In this document: positions 4,791 through 18,840 of the stretch, piece after piece
How the letters are laid out: each line of letters opens with the position of its first letter
Position numbering within the stretch: the stretch's first letter is position 1
IMG/VR virus record: IMGVR_UViG_3300028584_000286
Span: 5,320 to 69,319 of that record
Reading direction: 5' to 3' (one strand)
Length of the DNA stretch: 64,000 nucleotides
Source of the DNA: a virus
Notes under the pieces: generated by a model
Told to the model about the DNA's origin: nothing
The model's input: only the letters and a program-made list of their open reading frames with translations
Database searches by the model: none
Made by a program: the position numbers and the translations under genes

Positions 4791-5339
4791 ATGCCAGTAA
4801 GAGAAGAAAAGTTAATTGAACGTGATGGATTAGGTGGTAAAAAGTTTGCCCTAACACAGGAGCAATGGAATGAATTGGATAATAGAGTTTTCAAAACTGT
4901 TGAACGTAATAAAGAAGTTGTTACTTTTGTAGAAGAGTTATCAGAGGAATTATCCAAAACATTTAACCAAATTGTTAAGGTAGGATGTAGAGCATTCCGA
5001 AGTATTCACGAACACTCGGATGGTAGTGATAAAGTTTCTAGCAGAAGTTACCTATCTATGGAGGTTGTATCAGTGGATGATACTGGAAAAACAGAAAACT
5101 ATTATTTAGACACTCACCCCGATTTAGGTGAGTTAAGAGAAACCATTATACAAGATTTATATGTTAGAAGAGCAAGAAAACAAAAAGAGGGAGGAGATGG
5201 AGAAAGCAGTAGTGATACTGTTGAAGGGGATGGGGGAGAACCCAGAAAGAGCAGACTTGAAAAATACACCGAAAAGATTTGTGAAAGCGTTGATGTCATT
5301 CAGTCCGCAAAAAGAAGAACCAGAGGTAACAGTATTTGA
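4791..5339 (+). CDS. hypothetical protein (MPxR start); 3' end overprints folE
   Basis: 182 aa; last ~47 codons overlap folE in another frame. Confidence 0.65.
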   Translation: MPVREEKLIERDGLGGKKFALTQEQWNELDNRVFKTVERNKEVVTFVEELSEELSKTFNQIVKVGCRAFRSIHEHSDGSDKVSSRSYLSMEVVSVDDTGKTENYYLDTHPDLGELRETIIQDLYVRRARKQKEGGDGESSSDTVEGDGGEPRKSRLEKYTEKICESVDVIQSAKRRTRGNSI

Positions 5340-12803: not shown

Positions 12804-15035
12804 ATGGACACATTTTATAAAGAGTTACAGCAAAGTGATTGGCTAGGAAGAAATCCAAATGACTACACTTACAAAAAATCTGGTATATCTATCGGATGGG
12901 AGGACACCCTAACCAAAGGGGATGCGTTATCCAAATTCATACTTAAAGTAAATTCCCAAAATCTTGCAATAGATAGAAAAGTATTACTTACAAAACAAGC
13001 TTGTGGAAATATTCTATCAAGAATGAATGTTCACAAGCATAAAGCCAAAATAGTTTTCACAGACCAATTTTCAAGTTATCAAAAGGATAGTACAGTTTGT
13101 GTTACACTTGAACCTCTTTCTGGTAAAATACCATTCCCAACCTTTAATCACAGTCTTGACCCCATACTTGGGTTTGCAGTTCACGAAATTGCACATTTTC
13201 TTTACACAGACAAGCGTTACCAAGATTATCTAAAAAAGTTCAAAGGGAACGAAGCGAAGTTGAAAATGATGATTATGAATGTTTTGGAAGATGAGAGAAT
13301 TGAGCAGATAGTTGCAGGAACATTCAGAGGTTATACAGGTTATTTGGGCAAAGCTAAAGATTATTGTTTTGGCAAAAGATTTGCAGAAGAGAAGGCAAAA
13401 AGAAATGTGGACGACCAGCAAGATATTGTTCAATTAGCAGAAACATTTTTACACCTACTTCGTTATCCAAAAGCATTAGAGGAAAGTCTTGTAAATAAAT
13501 TTGAGCCACAGCTTCGAGATATTATGAGTGTTCTTACCCCATACCCAACAGATATTCCAGAGTTAGTTGAGTGTACTGAAAAAATCTACGCTATCTTTAA
13601 AGAAGATAATGATGAGGACGAGGGTGATGGAGATGGCGAGGATGGAGAAGGCGAAAGTGAGGGAGATGGTAATGGTAAAAGTGGTTCTGGAAAAGGCAAA
13701 GGAGATGGGTCTGGTGGTGGTAATTCCAATAATTCCAATAATTCCGAAGAAGAAAATGAGGATGGTTCTGATGATAGTAACTCTTCGGATGATGAAAAAG
13801 ATGGTGATAGTTCTGATGAAGATGGTTCAGATGATGGAGATAAAAAAGGAAATGGTAATGGTAATCCACAGAAGAGTGAAGAGGAACAAGAGGAAGAAAA
13901 AGATGGTGATAGTTCTGATGGAGATGATACCAAAGAAAATGCCGATGATAGTAACGGTAAAAAACCAAAAAAAGATATTGACAAATTACTTGATGCTTTC
14001 GCAGAAGCATTAATGTCGTCAGCACCCTCTACTGGTGGAGATGCAGAACAACTTGCAGAGATGCTCGGAATGAAAGGGAGGTATAATGTTTCAGAAGCCT
14101 TAAAAGAAATTTCAAATTACGAAAATGAGCAGATACTACCAACACAGTCGTTTGCACACATTTACCCAGACACCGAAAATCTACAAACCTCTCAAATGAG
14201 TGTTTACTTTAATGATGCAAAGAATTTAAAAAGCACCACAAACCACTATGATAGTGCGTTAAATGAAGTCAAGTCTTATTCAGCATCATTGAGAGCAAAA
14301 ATACAACAGTTGAATAGACATCAAGATATTACCTATAAAGGACTAACTGAAGGAGATTTTGATGATGGTATGTTGGTTGATGCAATAGTTGGTGCAAAGA
14401 ATATATACAAGCAAGACCATAAGGTTATGAATAGAGGTGCTTGTATTGGACTTCTTATTGATGAGAGTGGTTCTATGGGTTCCTCCTCTAGGTGGTATCA
14501 AGCTATGAAAATTGCAGTAATGTTTGAGAGAGCATTGGAGGGAGTTAATGGAGTTGATTTTTATTGCTATGGTCATACTACTGGGAATGATATAAGAAAC
14601 TCTACTTCTGGTGCTGATGCTACTTGGATTAATGTTTACTATGAGGGTAGAAAGGTTTCAGATAGAAAAGCACTTGGCAAAATACATAACCACAATACAA
14701 ATCGTGATGGACACGCAATACTTGAAGTGGTAGCAAGAATGAGAACTAAAGTAGCACAGAATATGCCAATTATACTATTTATGATTTCTGATGGTGAGCC
14801 TTCGGCTTCTGTTCCATCGGGCTATACTGGAATAACCTATACAAAAAAAGCGGTAAATGTAGTAGAGAAATACTCCAATGCAACTGTTTTGCACGTAGCC
14901 ATAGACAAAGGTATCCCCTCAAAAGATATGTTCAACCAATTTGTAGAATTTACAGATATGCAAACTCTAATAAGAGATATTGGTGGTATCTTAAAGAAAA
15001 TAATGTTAAAACAACAGTCTGCCAATGTTATTTAA
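12804..15035 (+). CDS. CobT-like vWA (MIDAS) protein with HExxH N-domain and acidic linker
   Basis: HEIAH, NVLEDERIE, long D/E/G/S linker, LIDESGSM MIDAS, TTG, ISDGEP. Confidence 0.88.
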   Translation: MDTFYKELQQSDWLGRNPNDYTYKKSGISIGWEDTLTKGDALSKFILKVNSQNLAIDRKVLLTKQACGNILSRMNVHKHKAKIVFTDQFSSYQKDSTVCVTLEPLSGKIPFPTFNHSLDPILGFAVHEIAHFLYTDKRYQDYLKKFKGNEAKLKMMIMNVLEDERIEQIVAGTFRGYTGYLGKAKDYCFGKRFAEEKAKRNVDDQQDIVQLAETFLHLLRYPKALEESLVNKFEPQLRDIMSVLTPYPTDIPELVECTEKIYAIFKEDNDEDEGDGDGEDGEGESEGDGNGKSGSGKGKGDGSGGGNSNNSNNSEEENEDGSDDSNSSDDEKDGDSSDEDGSDDGDKKGNGNGNPQKSEEEQEEEKDGDSSDGDDTKENADDSNGKKPKKDIDKLLDAFAEALMSSAPSTGGDAEQLAEMLGMKGRYNVSEALKEISNYENEQILPTQSFAHIYPDTENLQTSQMSVYFNDAKNLKSTTNHYDSALNEVKSYSASLRAKIQQLNRHQDITYKGLTEGDFDDGMLVDAIVGAKNIYKQDHKVMNRGACIGLLIDESGSMGSSSRWYQAMKIAVMFERALEGVNGVDFYCYGHTTGNDIRNSTSGADATWINVYYEGRKVSDRKALGKIHNHNTNRDGHAILEVVARMRTKVAQNMPIILFMISDGEPSASVPSGYTGITYTKKAVNVVEKYSNATVLHVAIDKGIPSKDMFNQFVEFTDMQTLIRDIGGILKKIMLKQQSANVI
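13794..13920 (+). repeat. 25-bp direct repeat in the acidic linker
   Basis: GAAAAAGATGGTGATAGTTCTGATG at 13794-13818 and 13896-13920. Confidence 0.85.
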
Positions 15036-15074: not shown

Positions 15075-15623
15075 ATGGAAAAATGGATTGAAATAACAGG
15101 GTACGAGGGATACTATGAAGTATCCAATTTAGGTAATGTTAGGACTTTTGATAGGGAGATAACATATAAAGCAAGAGGTGGAGGGTATAGAACAGATTTT
15201 TTAAAATCCAGAAAATTAAAACCACAAAAGCATAAAAATAGTTATCTATCCGTTACTCTATATAATAAAATTAGGGAAAAAAAGCAGTTTAATATACACA
15301 GGTTAGTTGCACTTATGTTTATTGAAAATCCATTTGGTAAGTTAGAGGTAAACCATAAAGACGGAAATAAGCTAAATAATATAGTTGAAAATTTGGAGTG
15401 GGTAACTCGTTCAGAAAATGCAAAACACATGGTGGATAACCAAATGATAAAGTACATAACTGGAAGTGGTAATTCTAATTGTGTATTATCTTTTTTAGAT
15501 GCAGAAAATATAAGAACTGAATATAAAAACGGTAGTTATTCACAAGACAAACTGGCTAAAAAATATGGGTGTAGTCAAGCAACAATCTCACAAATAATAA
15601 GAAACATAACATATAAGAAATGA
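15075..15623 (+). CDS. NUMOD4-HNH homing endonuclease with C-terminal HTH
   Basis: W..I.GYEG.YEVSNLG.VR (NUMOD4), HRLVA..F, VNHKDGNK.NN...NLEWVT..EN. Confidence 0.93.
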   Translation: MEKWIEITGYEGYYEVSNLGNVRTFDREITYKARGGGYRTDFLKSRKLKPQKHKNSYLSVTLYNKIREKKQFNIHRLVALMFIENPFGKLEVNHKDGNKLNNIVENLEWVTRSENAKHMVDNQMIKYITGSGNSNCVLSFLDAENIRTEYKNGSYSQDKLAKKYGCSQATISQIIRNITYKK

Positions 15624-16564
15624 GTTTAAAAAACTTGGTTAATCAAGCAAAAAAAGCCACAATACAACACACAAAGGGTGGGGTTTCAGTTAATACTGGA
15701 ACTCCCTCCTTTCAATCTTTGATTTATGGGCTACATTATTTGACCCCTCAAAAAAACGATTTAAGGGCATTATTAGAAGGCTTTATTGCTTTATTGGATA
15801 AGCAACCCGAACCAACAGAAACGGACAAAAAAAGACTTATTTTAGCTTTTTATAGACTTGCATTCTCGCAAGATGCAAGAGCAAAGGGGGTATTTCACCC
15901 ATCGGAAATATCTACTGAAACACAGGTTTGTGAAAGAAAGATGTATTTTCAAAAAGCAGAAGTATCACAGGATGCAACTTATGTAAGTTTTACAGCAGAT
16001 AATAGAATGATGAGGTTATGTGATTTAGGCACAATGGTTCATTTGTACGTTCAGGATAACTTGGATAGGTCTGGTATTTTAAAAGATTTTGAAGTACCAG
16101 TATCAGCACCAGATTTAGGTATTGAGGGAAAGGCAGATGGGCTATTTGATTTCTATGGTTTGGATGACTTGGGAAATTTTTATGAGCCAGAAGAGATGGT
16201 TTTAGAGGTTAAGACTATCAATGATTATGCTTTCAAATATTTGCGTAAGGCAAAAGATGAGCATTTAAAACAAGCCTCTATTTATGGTGCCATATTGAAC
16301 AAGAAAAGAATATGTTTTCTCTATTACAATAAAAATACTTCGGAACACAAAACGTTTGTTCAAGAGGTAGATTTTAAATATTTCGAATGGTTTAAGGAGT
16401 TAGCCTCTGGGGTAATAAAATTATACAATTCTAATGTTAGACAGACAAGAAGCAAAGATGTAAATTTACATAATGCAATACCAACTAGAATTTGCCACGA
16501 CAGAACTAATCAACGTGCTATGAGTTGTGCTTTTGCAGATTATTGTTTTAAGTTACAAAAATAG
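15620..16564 (+). CDS. Cas4/RecB-family PD-(D/E)XK exonuclease
   Basis: HPSE..C.RK, GT.VH, GKADG, EVKT, Q..IY, C-terminal C..C..YC (Fe-S ligands). Confidence 0.8.
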   Translation: MSLKNLVNQAKKATIQHTKGGVSVNTGTPSFQSLIYGLHYLTPQKNDLRALLEGFIALLDKQPEPTETDKKRLILAFYRLAFSQDARAKGVFHPSEISTETQVCERKMYFQKAEVSQDATYVSFTADNRMMRLCDLGTMVHLYVQDNLDRSGILKDFEVPVSAPDLGIEGKADGLFDFYGLDDLGNFYEPEEMVLEVKTINDYAFKYLRKAKDEHLKQASIYGAILNKKRICFLYYNKNTSEHKTFVQEVDFKYFEWFKELASGVIKLYNSNVRQTRSKDVNLHNAIPTRICHDRTNQRAMSCAFADYCFKLQK

Positions 16565-16904
16565 AAAGTATATGGTTATGGACTATGAACTAAATGAACT
16601 GGATGCGGTTAGCACTTTACAATGTGGAAGTATTTTACCAAAAAGACATTGTGGAAATACTACCCGACAAATAGACTGGGCTATACAACAGCTTTATAAT
16701 GGTAGAGTAGTTCATTTGAAAGACCACCATTTAGGAGGTACACATAGAGAAGCAAATTTTAATATGCTAAAGGTTATTGAAAAAAGATTACCCTATTATG
16801 ATAGACAACCCAATAGATTTGTTGTTAATACCATTAATGGATTATTTAAGCAAATTTTATTTATCCCAGAGTTTTTAGAAGAGTTAGAGCGTAGAAGATA
16901 TTAA
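16527..16904 (+). CDS. hypothetical protein
   Basis: 125-aa ORF; true start may be downstream. Confidence 0.6.
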   Translation: MLLQIIVLSYKNRKYMVMDYELNELDAVSTLQCGSILPKRHCGNTTRQIDWAIQQLYNGRVVHLKDHHLGGTHREANFNMLKVIEKRLPYYDRQPNRFVVNTINGLFKQILFIPEFLEELERRRY

Positions 16905-16915
16905 ATTAATTAGTT

Positions 16916-17512
16916 ATGCCAATTAGACCACTTGACGGAGAATATTTAGAAAAGTCCACAAATTTAGCAGGACAACTGGAGGAAGCATTTAATAACATAG
17001 GTACTTCTATGATGTCCCCTATTGAGATAAGAAATTTGAACAATAAAACATTAAGAGTAACACACGGATATTCAAGAAGTTCAGACCCAGTTAAAAAATC
17101 TCTATACAGAAGATGGTGTTCTATGAAAACACGCTGTACTAATTCTAACACAAATTGTTCAAAATATTACAAGGATAAGAATATTTCATTATGTGATGAG
17201 TGGTTTCATAGTTTTGAGTTATTTATGACTTGGTCATTAGAAAATGGTTATGCCAGTTCATTGCAAATAGATAGAAAAGATTGTTCTCTCGGTTACACAC
17301 CAGAAAATTGTAGATGGGTAACTCCTACAAAAAACTGTAATAACAAAACTAACAATAGAATACACATTTATAAAGGATTTTCTGGTACATTAAGAGAATT
17401 TTCAGTAAAATATAATATTCCATATAGTTTATTACGAAGTAGAATTTATGAGGGCTGGACTATTGATAAAGCCTTAAATACTAAAAAATTAAAAGTTATA
17501 AAAAATGCCTAA
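16916..17512 (+). mobile_element. HNH-type homing endonuclease carrying a copy of the N-terminus of the next gene
   Basis: THG, LY..W.SMK.RC.N, CDEW..F..F..W, IDR.D...GY.PENCRW; first 29 aa are 23/29 identical to the ORF at 17505. Confidence 0.88.
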
Positions 17513-17999
17513 AAGACCTTTAGATACACCGTATAGAGAAAATTCTACTAACCTTGCAGGTCAGTTAGAAGAAGCCTTAAATAATATAGGATTGTCCGCT
17601 ATGACCTATGATTTCGCAGGGAAGCTACTTGCATTTTTATTGAAGTATGGTGGAGGTATGGAAGCAACAACCCATCATAAGGGGTTAAATGCAGGTATTA
17701 TGATTGCACAGGAAAAATGCAATATTAAAGGTGGGTGCATACCGACTATGGAAGGATTACAAGCAATTCAAAAATACAATAATGAGTTGAACAAAGAAAC
17801 CCAAGATTTAGAATGTGAATGGCTTTGGGAAATTTTTCTTCGTTATGATTTGCCTACTGGAAATTTAAAAAGTAAATGCCCAGAGGAGTTAAAAGCAAAG
17901 TATGGAGAGCCTAAAAAATCTAGTGGATCTAAACCGATTAAAAAGGGAGGTGGATTAAGCCAGTTCATTGATAGTGTAAATTCAGCAACAGGGAAATAA
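17505..17999 (+). CDS. hypothetical protein (MPxR start)
   Basis: 164 aa. Confidence 0.75.
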   Translation: MPKRPLDTPYRENSTNLAGQLEEALNNIGLSAMTYDFAGKLLAFLLKYGGGMEATTHHKGLNAGIMIAQEKCNIKGGCIPTMEGLQAIQKYNNELNKETQDLECEWLWEIFLRYDLPTGNLKSKCPEELKAKYGEPKKSSGSKPIKKGGGLSQFIDSVNSATGK

Positions 18000-18256
18000 T
18001 GGAAATTAAAATAAATAGTTGGTTTAGAAAAAGTGAAGCAATCCCACATACAGGCTCAATGGTTATTGCTGTAACAGATGCAGACAAAACCTATGAAGCA
18101 TATTTTGAAAACTTTTTGGGTAATGAGATTTGGGAAACTTCGGGTAATTTTGATGATACTGAAAAAATTATTTTTTGGAGATACCGAGAAACGGTTGGGG
18201 ATGTTCCAAAGAAATACCCAGAGCCGAGAGCAATAAGCAGTAAACTTAATAAATAA
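17999..18256 (+). CDS. hypothetical protein
   Basis: 85 aa. Confidence 0.6.
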   Translation: MEIKINSWFRKSEAIPHTGSMVIAVTDADKTYEAYFENFLGNEIWETSGNFDDTEKIIFWRYRETVGDVPKKYPEPRAISSKLNK

Positions 18257-18261
18257 AAATT

Positions 18262-18840
18262 ATGCCAGTTAGAGAGAAAAAAGACGAGCCAAGTAAAGAT
18301 GTTCGTTCACGAGAAAAAGTAGTAGGAAAATCAGAAGGCGGAAAGTATAAAGATATACTTGACCTATCTTTTTTACCTCGTCAAATGATTGAGAGAATAG
18401 ATGATATTTTTGACAGTTATTTCGGGTTGGGAATGAAAAAGAGCAATGCTACTATGGAATGTAGTTATACCCCTAGATTTCCAGCTGATATGGCATCGCT
18501 AACCTCACCAGAATTAGGTAATACTTTGGGGGAATATACAGCTTGGTTTGCCTATGCCTCTGATAAGCTGAAATATATTGTAGTAGCTTGTTCACACATC
18601 GAAAGAGAGATGGATAAGGTTATTGATGGTGAACTCGGTACTATGGTAGCGGACAAAGGAAACATTGAAGCCAAGAAGTCAAAAGCAAAGAGTTCCTCTG
18701 ATTACATTACTTTGGTGTCTTACCACCAAAAATTATCTGGGCTAAAAATACTATTGGATAGTGAATTGAAGTCCTATGATAAATGTATTTCTACTTTATC
18801 AAGAGAGGTTAGTCGAAGAGAATTTAATGGTGGTTTCTAA
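18262..18840 (+). CDS. helical protein, possibly UvsY-like recombination mediator (MPxR start)
   Basis: Long amphipathic helices ending LSREVSRR; function is inference. Confidence 0.55.
   Translation: MPVREKKDEPSKDVRSREKVVGKSEGGKYKDILDLSFLPRQMIERIDDIFDSYFGLGMKKSNATMECSYTPRFPADMASLTSPELGNTLGEYTAWFAYASDKLKYIVVACSHIEREMDKVIDGELGTMVADKGNIEAKKSKAKSSSDYITLVSYHQKLSGLKILLDSELKSYDKCISTLSREVSRREFNGGF

Follow-up and report, generated by a model that had tools for sequence, protein, structure and literature searches.

A predicted homing-endonuclease cassette that appears to supply a replacement 5' end to the phage gene it interrupts

In a phage genome, an ORF for a putative endonuclease begins with a copy of the first 34 codons of the gene that follows it, here called X, and X itself begins with a second, diverged copy of the same codons. 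We consider it likely that this arrangement arose when a homing-endonuclease cassette bearing replacement codons 1-34 invaded X between codons 34 and 35, and that X was kept whole by the codons that the cassette brought with it. The sequence analysed, referred to as the window, is a stretch of 64,000 nucleotides corresponding to positions 5,320 to 69,319 of the IMG/VR virus record IMGVR_UViG_3300028584_000286. The record is 84,459 bp long, has a G+C content of 34 %, and its completeness was estimated at 98 %. Positions given below are those of the window, and all of the features listed are on the + strand.

The endonuclease ORF and X lie within a + strand block of early-type genes. On the 5' side are genes for a CobT/vWA-like protein (12804-15035), a classical NUMOD4-HNH_3 endonuclease (15075-15623) and a Cas4-like PD-(D/E)XK nuclease (15620-16564), followed by a small variable gene (16574-16904, approximately 110 aa from the ATG at 16574). 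This variable gene corresponds to the C-terminal part of a 144-aa gene in the relative L003. The ORF that combines the upstream copy of the X codons with the endonuclease, here the fused ORF (16916-17512, 198 aa), and X (17505-17999, 164 aa) come next, and on the 3' side of X there are three small genes and then those for SpoVS and QueC. At least 10 genes in the window open with MPxR.

X belongs to a family of small proteins made up of 334 representative clusters at 50 % identity. A structural model (mean pLDDT 77) suggests that it is a conserved small helical phage protein, with a first helix predicted at residues 17-32 and a second at residues 35-48, and the boundary between codons 34 and 35 would therefore fall in the loop between these two helices. 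Members of the close subfamily have the conserved N-terminus MPxRP...S.NLAGQLEEAFN.IG.SMM. No match to X was found in Pfam, in PHROG or among 50,697 cultured-phage records. A Foldseek search with the model gave no significant match and no PDB fold was assigned, and only sub-threshold leads were obtained from the ESM Atlas.

The original prediction, which was made from the letters of the window, reported that the N-termini encoded from 16916 and 17505 are identical at 23 of 29 residues. Both ORFs are present at these positions and the count was reproduced. The homology between the upstream copy (16916-17017) and the downstream copy (17505-17606) was found to reach codon 34, with 25 of 34 residues identical, and past this codon the upstream ORF continues with PIE and X with YDF. 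At the DNA level, the copies share 58 of 87 bases over 29 codons and 66 of 105 bases over 35 codons. The near-total difference in codons that had been noted in the core was also recovered, as 9 of the 11 codons from S14 to A24 differ synonymously. Over codons 1-34 there are 23 non-Met positions at which the residue is shared, and the codon is also shared at 7 of these. It had been pointed out that such a peptide might occur by chance on many unrelated proteins. However, when the whole 84.5-kb genome was searched in six frames with X as the query, only X and the upstream copy were retrieved (E 7e-10), and residues 1-40 of the fused ORF, searched against 5.8 billion proteins, matched only their own protein and two orthologous fusions. 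The match between the two copies is thus not a chance one.

X was found intact and free of any endonuclease at the syntenic place in five distinct loci (L003/L004, L005, L006, L008/L009 and the P0002 contig), referred to below as empty alleles. The shared gene order is vWA-like protein, Cas4-like nuclease, variable gene, X, g85, g192, g197, SpoVS and QueC. In L003/L004, L005 and the P0002 contig, X begins 3-4 bases past its upstream neighbour, and L006 and L008/L009 are short contigs that carry an intact X. A first scan of viral contigs with X alone retrieved no relatives, and alignment-based scans of viral and metagenome contigs retrieved distant empty alleles only.

The complete arrangement, namely upstream copy, endonuclease, downstream copy and the rest of X, recurs in L016, L017 and L018. 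These are independent assemblies from different projects, and recurrence of the architecture in three further assemblies excludes an assembly artefact. L016 and L017 encode the same fusion protein and the same X and were counted as one locus, so that there are three occupied loci including the window. The fusion proteins of the other two are 82 and 70 % identical to that in the window, and their N-terminal copies match it at 29 of 29 and 27 of 29 residues. In all occupied loci, the junction follows codon 34. The insert is therefore sporadically present or absent at one precise site in syntenic genomes, with five empty and three occupied loci. The cassette unit is conserved in the three occupied loci, whereas their left neighbours differ. 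In the window, the C-terminal part of the variable gene precedes the upstream copy. L016 retains only a 52-aa N-terminal remnant of that gene at this place, and L018 has the Cas4-like gene directly next to the copy. Two of the empty loci (L006 and L008) and one occupied locus (L016) come from metagenome assemblies of a single project, labelled MUNK22-1.

Based on the alignments with empty alleles and on the mosaic boundary described below, the inserted cassette would span 589 bp (17018-17606), made up of the endonuclease body and the replacement codons 1-34, and would lie between codons 34 and 35 of the ancestral X. The remainder of the resident gene, codons 35-164 and the stop codon, occupies 17607-17999.

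Comparison of the two copies with the empty alleles distinguishes them. The upstream copy is identical to L006 at 86 of 105 bases, with identical runs of 29-33 bases, and it encodes F25 and M32, the consensus of the empty alleles in the close subfamily (12 distinct DNA sequences and further proteins were compared, and position 32 is L in two). For the downstream copy, the nearest type of allele is P0006/L008, with 80 of 105 bases identical and 4 of 34 residues different. This copy includes the substitutions F25L (17577-17579) and M32A (17598-17600). Among the close-subfamily sequences compared, L25 and A/S32 are confined to the downstream copies of the three occupied loci, and F25L and M32A/S sit 6-30 bases from the junction. 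By its sequence, the downstream copy looks like an imported allele with two private substitutions. F25 is not invariant beyond the close subfamily, as only 52 % of 99 more distant representatives of the wider superfamily have F at this position, with A in 18 % and L in 13 %. The occurrence of Leu in 13 % of the superfamily indicates that F25L is tolerable, as is expected of an immunising change in a functional gene.

The search for endonuclease-free alleles that had been suggested as a check was thus productive, and it is the upstream copy that they match. This copy is located at the native start position of X, now provides the endonuclease ORF with its translation start and N-terminus, and is probably also the left homology arm. 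One of the two explanations offered in the original prediction was that the endonuclease had inserted into the 5' end of the gene and taken over its start, with the gene then restored, and the allele comparison supports it.

The presence of both copies in one genome might also go back to a tandem duplication, in place, of the 5' end of X, with the copies then diverging over a long time and no foreign allele imported, and the degree of divergence is compatible with long, simple saturation. We regard this as very unlikely, because each copy is closer to a different empty allele (L006 for the upstream and L008 for the downstream copy) than to its partner. Indeed, the pairs of copies found within one genome are the least similar of the whole matrix (63-66 of 105 bases). 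The copies had, moreover, fully diverged before the three occupied loci split from their common ancestor, and from the mosaic seen between P0002 and L016 it is clear that codons 1-34 move together with the endonuclease.

This mosaic, which was examined at the protein level, is found when X of L016 is compared with the empty allele in P0002. The two differ at 8 of 34 positions before the junction and at only 3 of 130 positions after it (Fisher p = 1.7e-4). The exchange tract ends at the insertion site, and the break between codons 34 and 35 indicates that gain and loss of the endonuclease involve codons 1-34 of X as well. The upstream copy in L016 differs from the N-terminus of P0002 at 6 of 34 residues. 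An exchange must therefore have taken place on the left side as well, an outcome expected from co-conversion in the course of break repair.

The original prediction also held that both copies are under selection, and substitution rates between occupied loci bear this out as purifying selection. In the comparison of the window with L016, used here unless stated otherwise, pN and pS are 0.025 and 0.231 for the upstream copy, 0.116 and 0.536 for the endonuclease body, 0.025 and 0.485 for the downstream copy, and 0.130 and 0.787 for the rest of X, and pS is 0.37-0.66 in the flanking genes. In a second comparison of occupied loci, the values for the downstream copy were 0.10 and 0.69, and pN for the upstream copy ranges from 0.025 to 0.056 across such comparisons. 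Judged by these ratios, the endonuclease, both copies and the rest of X are all under purifying selection.

The downstream copy had been described as recoded, and synonymous sites as saturated. The second of these descriptions stands, and the first does not if recoding beyond saturation is meant. In the three occupied loci, 7, 6 and 7 positions share the same codon, where 9.6, 9.6 and 8.3 are expected from independent draws from the codon usage of the genome (p = 0.18, 0.08 and 0.35, respectively; the first value is for the window). As these counts are not significantly below expectation, extra synonymous divergence between the copies was rejected, and there is no sign that selection has favoured it. 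Synonymous sites are saturated between lineages across all of X, and saturation throughout the family indicates that two old alleles were brought together, rather than that one copy was rewritten after a duplication.

The age of the cassette appears to be roughly that of the divergence of the window from L016. Its pS of approximately 0.5 is within the range for the flanking genes, and the three occupied loci therefore probably derive from one insertion. On the same figures (approximately 0.5 against 0.37-0.66), there is no support for the cassette having passed horizontally between the window and L016 in recent times. We note that, with a single insertion, the link of L25/A32 with occupancy is effectively one event and could be a matter of lineage history.

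In the comparison of the window with L016, the upstream copy has the lowest synonymous divergence of the region, and among the empty alleles the first 34 codons likewise have a lower pS than the rest of the gene. The low pS of the 5' end of X may reflect a constraint at the DNA level, or repeated exchange of the start region or left arm. Another reading of the conserved N-terminus, also raised in the original prediction, is that its 34 residues, with the predicted helix at 17-32, form a functional module, a binding or targeting peptide required by X and the endonuclease alike. No other part of the fused ORF is as well conserved as the upstream copy (29/29 and 27/29 residues, against 82 and 70 % identity overall), which has a pN of 0.025-0.056, and the MPxR start of at least 10 genes in the window hints at a role for an N-terminal motif. 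However, conservation of the upstream copy extends to its synonymous sites (pS 0.23, compared with 0.54 for the endonuclease body), which argues for constraint on, or exchange of, the DNA rather than for selection on the peptide alone. The peptide was found only on the three orthologous fusions in the search of 5.8 billion proteins, and in the predicted structure of the endonuclease this segment has a pLDDT of 40-58 and is not packed against the core. We therefore find a common peptide function unlikely, and it is not needed, as the position of the upstream copy and its resemblance to empty alleles are explained without one.

The ATG of X is located 8 bases before the end of the endonuclease ORF, in the overlap ATGCCTAA (17505-17512), and this overlap of start and stop is identical in the window, L016 and L018. 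X is probably translated by termination-reinitiation at this point. The first ORF ends with a TAA stop at 17510-17512, and the reading frame shifts by +1 between the two ORFs (17505 minus 16916 is 589). The frame shift and the intervening stop rule out an intein.

The possibility that the interval is removed as a group I intron or an intein, with the true X made up of the upstream copy joined to codons 35-164, would accommodate the consensus residues F25 and M32 in the upstream copy and the location of the insertion at a conserved site within a gene. Apart from the frame and the stop codon, which exclude the intein, several findings make removal of the interval extremely unlikely. No intron family was detected in an Rfam search of 16400-18300 at E values up to 10, and there was no excess of RNA structure at either start region (folding z -0.8 to +1.0). 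Coding sequence under purifying selection fills the whole interval, and in three loci the downstream copy keeps its own ATG and the conserved peptide despite the synonymous changes. The 5' splice site of a group I intron is usually preceded by U, whereas the base before the junction is C or A.

The endonuclease body consists of residues 35-198 of the fused ORF and the stop codon (17018-17512). Residues 54-193 match phrog_3377, a PHROG family annotated as 'HNH endonuclease' (E 1.4e-43), and the shared peptide therefore lies ahead of the enzyme. A relationship to gp59 of phage ICP1 was found by BLASTP (E 4e-8) and, using the family alignment, by hhalign (probability 96.9 %, E 1.4e-10, 154 columns). 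The predicted atypical HNH-like core is at about 17075-17360 and includes a QIDR motif (17264-17275), which is part of the invariant family motif QIDR.D..GY.P.NCRWV...N. When profiles are aligned, the invariant D119-R120 falls on the N-H of the classical HNH endonuclease encoded at 15075-15623. The general-base His of the first HNH motif is absent, with Arg found here and D-K in ICP1 gp59. The HNH of the original prediction is thus of an atypical class and not a textbook HNH endonuclease, as it has Arg in place of the general-base His.

A search of Pfam, including HNH_3, gave no match for the fused ORF at E values up to 0.01, and HNH_3 was matched weakly by 10 of 41 relatives (best E 0.005). 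AP2 was not matched in the fused ORF and was found in only 3 of the 41 relatives. At the C-terminus there is a helix-turn-helix-like module that aligns to the helix-turn-helix region of the neighbouring HNH protein. The structural model has pLDDT >90 over residues 60-190. In an exhaustive VIA search, the best solved fold was that of the HNH restriction enzyme PacI (Z 6.4, rmsd 3.5, 83 residues); a sequence search of the PDB found nothing, and Foldseek with the model found nothing significant. Support for a beta-beta-alpha fold of the core is thus middling, and catalytic activity of the protein is plausible.

Relatives of the endonuclease were identified in 804 phage records, and most have an N-terminal zinc-ribbon module that is absent in the fused ORF. 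A view of the endonuclease as 5'-truncated, based on this absence, was softened because natural short forms with approximately 20 residues before the core occur (P0036 and P0054). A free-standing precursor of the endonuclease was not found, and the next relative is 54 % identical.

The insert might alternatively be a fossil or a domesticated gene that has lost homing and now persists through a role in DNA binding or regulation, or only because read-through of it is needed for the translation of X. Arg in place of the general-base His could be taken as a sign of this, but it is invariant in the family and so belongs to a whole widespread group of proteins, with no decay specific to this copy. 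The zinc-ribbon of most relatives is missing, but short forms without this module exist elsewhere in the family. The cassette seems to be of about the same age as the split of the window from L016, and the overlap of ATG and stop would tie expression of X to translation of the endonuclease ORF. Set against these points are the purifying selection on the endonuclease body, the coexistence of empty and occupied alleles in assemblies of the same project (L006, L008 and L016; MUNK22-1), and a very recent exchange boundary, between P0002 and L016, located exactly at the junction. The distribution of the family is also sporadic, as is typical of homing endonucleases (PMC10448857). Loss of homing is a real possibility, but we consider it doubtful.

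If, as we favour, a homing-endonuclease cassette invaded X, it would consist of the startless body of a free-standing atypical-HNH gene followed by diverged X codons 1-34 with their own ATG. The resident codons 1-34 would then be fused in frame to the endonuclease and provide it with the native translation start of X, and full-length X would still be made from the codons 1-34 of the cassette and the resident codons 35-164. The occupied allele would be protected from the putative nuclease in both copies. In the upstream copy the target sequence would be broken by the junction, and in the downstream copy it would be altered by the many synonymous changes together with F25L and M32A/S. The longest run common to both copies is 6 bases, which is about what 63 % identity predicts, and, with no long identical runs, the cassette is unlikely to be deleted by recombination between the repeats. 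An empty allele would be invaded through double-strand-break repair, with the upstream copy and the DNA preceding it as the left homology arm and X from codon 35 onward as the right arm.

The origin of the cassette is a matter for speculation. The donor could have been a phage with a free-standing endonuclease gene located just upstream of an immune X with L25 and A32. A recipient with a different upstream neighbour would have been cut between codons 34 and 35, and repair may have copied leftwards through the 5' part of the donor X and then the endonuclease. Where homology was absent, the start of the endonuclease may have been joined in frame to the broken end by an illegitimate event. The donor arrangement, a free-standing endonuclease upstream of an L25/A32 form of X, was not found among the relatives.

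On balance, we lean towards regarding this arrangement as a third way, besides introns and inteins, for an endonuclease to reside inside a phage coding gene, in which the endonuclease carries an immune spare first helix, takes the resident start and homology arm, and hands translation back to the host gene at an overlapping stop and start. If so, an endonuclease could enter a conserved phage gene without a ribozyme, an intein or a split protein, and part of a host gene could be replaced by foreign sequence through such an insertion. Cassettes of this 'self-splinting' kind may be a general and overlooked source of short N-terminal duplications and mosaic gene starts in phages, and would provide a specific mechanism behind the proposal that the limits of genetic exchange between phages are marked by nuclease genes. 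In annotation, short duplicated N-termini beside endonuclease genes should not be taken for assembly errors, paralogues or introns. The locus would also provide an experimental system for a widespread HNH-like class in which Arg or Lys replaces the catalytic His, as the putative sensitive (empty) and putative immune (downstream) sequences have few defined differences within about 30 bp of the junction.

Homing by free-standing endonucleases without introns is known from phage T4, where SegF acts at gene 56, SegG at gene 32 and MobE at nrdB. In these systems, cutting is directed at the allele that lacks the endonuclease gene and is followed by co-conversion of the flanks, and sequence polymorphisms protect the carrier allele. 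The T4 endonuclease genes lie between genes, and in Aeromonas phage Aeh1, where mobE interrupts nrdA, the host gene stays split and two polypeptides are made. The window resembles these cases in having an endonuclease gene of the free-standing type beside or within a conserved phage gene. We know of no duplication of the displaced coding segment, and of no fusion of the endonuclease to the start of the host gene, in the T4 and Aeh1 cases.

The IPA-HNH endonucleases of ICP1-like phages (Barth, Dunham and Seed 2023, PMC10448857) are also related in kind. ICP1 gp59, to which the core of the protein in the window is homologous, belongs to this class together with gp115-116 and gp209, and the class has been proposed on genomic grounds to comprise homing endonucleases (PMC10448857). 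As in that class, the protein is too divergent for the Pfam HNH_3 model and some of its relatives have AP2, and a recombination boundary coincides with the endonuclease gene (PMC10448857). The protein in the window itself differs in having a helix-turn-helix-like C-terminus and no AP2. In the parts of that paper drawn on here, the IPA-HNH genes described are mostly free-standing, genes interrupted by endonuclease sequences are mentioned, and a duplicated 5' end of the host gene is not among the features described (PMC10448857). No phage example of an endonuclease cassette with a spare gene start was found in the literature searched.

Precedents are found in fungal mitochondria. The 'N-terminal duplications' reported from Tremella in 2020 (PMC7315562) are similar in that the mobile insert includes a sequence homologous to a part of its host gene, and in that fragment exchange through gain and loss is seen when alleles are compared. 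However, those inserts are in fungal mitochondrial DNA and are at least 2 kb long, and their fates are mixed, as they may be a true intron, part of the cDNA or downstream sequence. Takeover of the start codon and translational coupling, found or predicted in the window, are not described for Tremella (PMC7315562). Elements with a foreign copy of the displaced end of a host gene are also known from atp6 of Allomyces macrogynus, rps3 of Ophiostoma novo-ulmi and cox2 of Phlebia radiata (PMC4019555). With these the window shares an endonuclease ORF inside a coding gene and fused in frame to its upstream part, a diverged duplicate of the displaced segment that keeps the host ORF at full length, and a gene partly replaced by foreign sequence (PMC4019555). 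In view of the fungal mitochondrial precedents the arrangement is not new in principle, and what appears to be new, judged from the literature searched, is a phage version with duplication of the 5' end. The atp6, rps3 and cox2 elements are organellar, encode LAGLIDADG or GIY-YIG enzymes, duplicate the C-terminal end and are often in an intron context (PMC4019555), whereas the window is from a phage and has an atypical HNH enzyme, a duplicated 5' end, a resident start that the endonuclease has taken over, and an overlapping ATG at which X restarts.

The segment most divergent between the window and L016, a related assembly that also carries the cassette (the putative insert at 17018-17606, comprising the endonuclease body and replacement codons 1-34 of gene X), is the resident part of X (window 17607-17999, L016:3342-3731). 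The proportion of synonymous differences here was 0.79, whereas the flanks gave values of 0.37-0.66. In L016, this part of X is almost identical to the empty allele P0002. As judged from these sequence comparisons, the high divergence from the window and the near identity to P0002 together suggest that the body of X was exchanged recently in a separate event, with the cassette as its boundary. X itself (window 17505-17999) belongs, with P0113-P0260, to a family of small helical proteins of approximately 100-180 aa that lack annotation and form 334 clusters at 50 % identity. G29, L42, A43, E53, G76, G77, P80, W106 and Y114 are near-invariant. In near relatives, X adjoins a Cas4-like nuclease gene within a replication/recombination-type module.

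A small gene between the Cas4-like nuclease gene and X is variable (window 16527-16904; L003:4563-4997; L016:2503-2661). It encodes 144 aa in L003, which lacks the cassette, and only the C-terminal ~110 aa are retained in the window and only a 52 aa N-terminal remnant in L016; it is missing from L005 (empty) and L018 (occupied). The deletion endpoint in L016 lies no more than 11 bases from the start of the upstream copy of X codons 1-34, and this position hints that the deletion is tied to the cassette through rearrangement.

Ten ORFs of at least 60 aa in the window, all on the + strand, begin with Met-Pro-x-Arg (starts at 4791, 5815, 16916, 17505, 18262, 18892, 26545, 37752, 38226 and 46268; variants MPVRE, MPSRE, MPIRP, MPKRP, MPKRE, MPVRG, MPVRK and MPLRS), whereas the chance expectation for the 136 ATG-initiated ORFs listed is approximately 0.2. 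This start is retained in X homologues of related phages, and it may represent an N-terminal signal or a favoured initiation context (ATGCCnnnnAGA).

The 743 aa CobT/vWA-like protein (ORF 12804-15035) includes a long acidic low-complexity linker rich in Gly, Ser, Asp, Glu and Asn (13560-14030, + strand). As a by-product of this linker, the opposite strand and other frames show long spurious ORFs. Between the vWA-like and Cas4-like nuclease genes lies a second endonuclease gene (15075-15623, + strand). These two flanking genes overlap directly in L003/L004, where the insert is absent, and are separated by a 74 aa ORF in L016 and a 156 aa ORF in L005. Like the X/cassette locus, which lies 1.3 kb downstream, this interval shows a presence/absence polymorphism, and its occupant in the window, with NUMOD4, HNH_3 and helix-turn-helix domains, is a classical homing-endonuclease gene.
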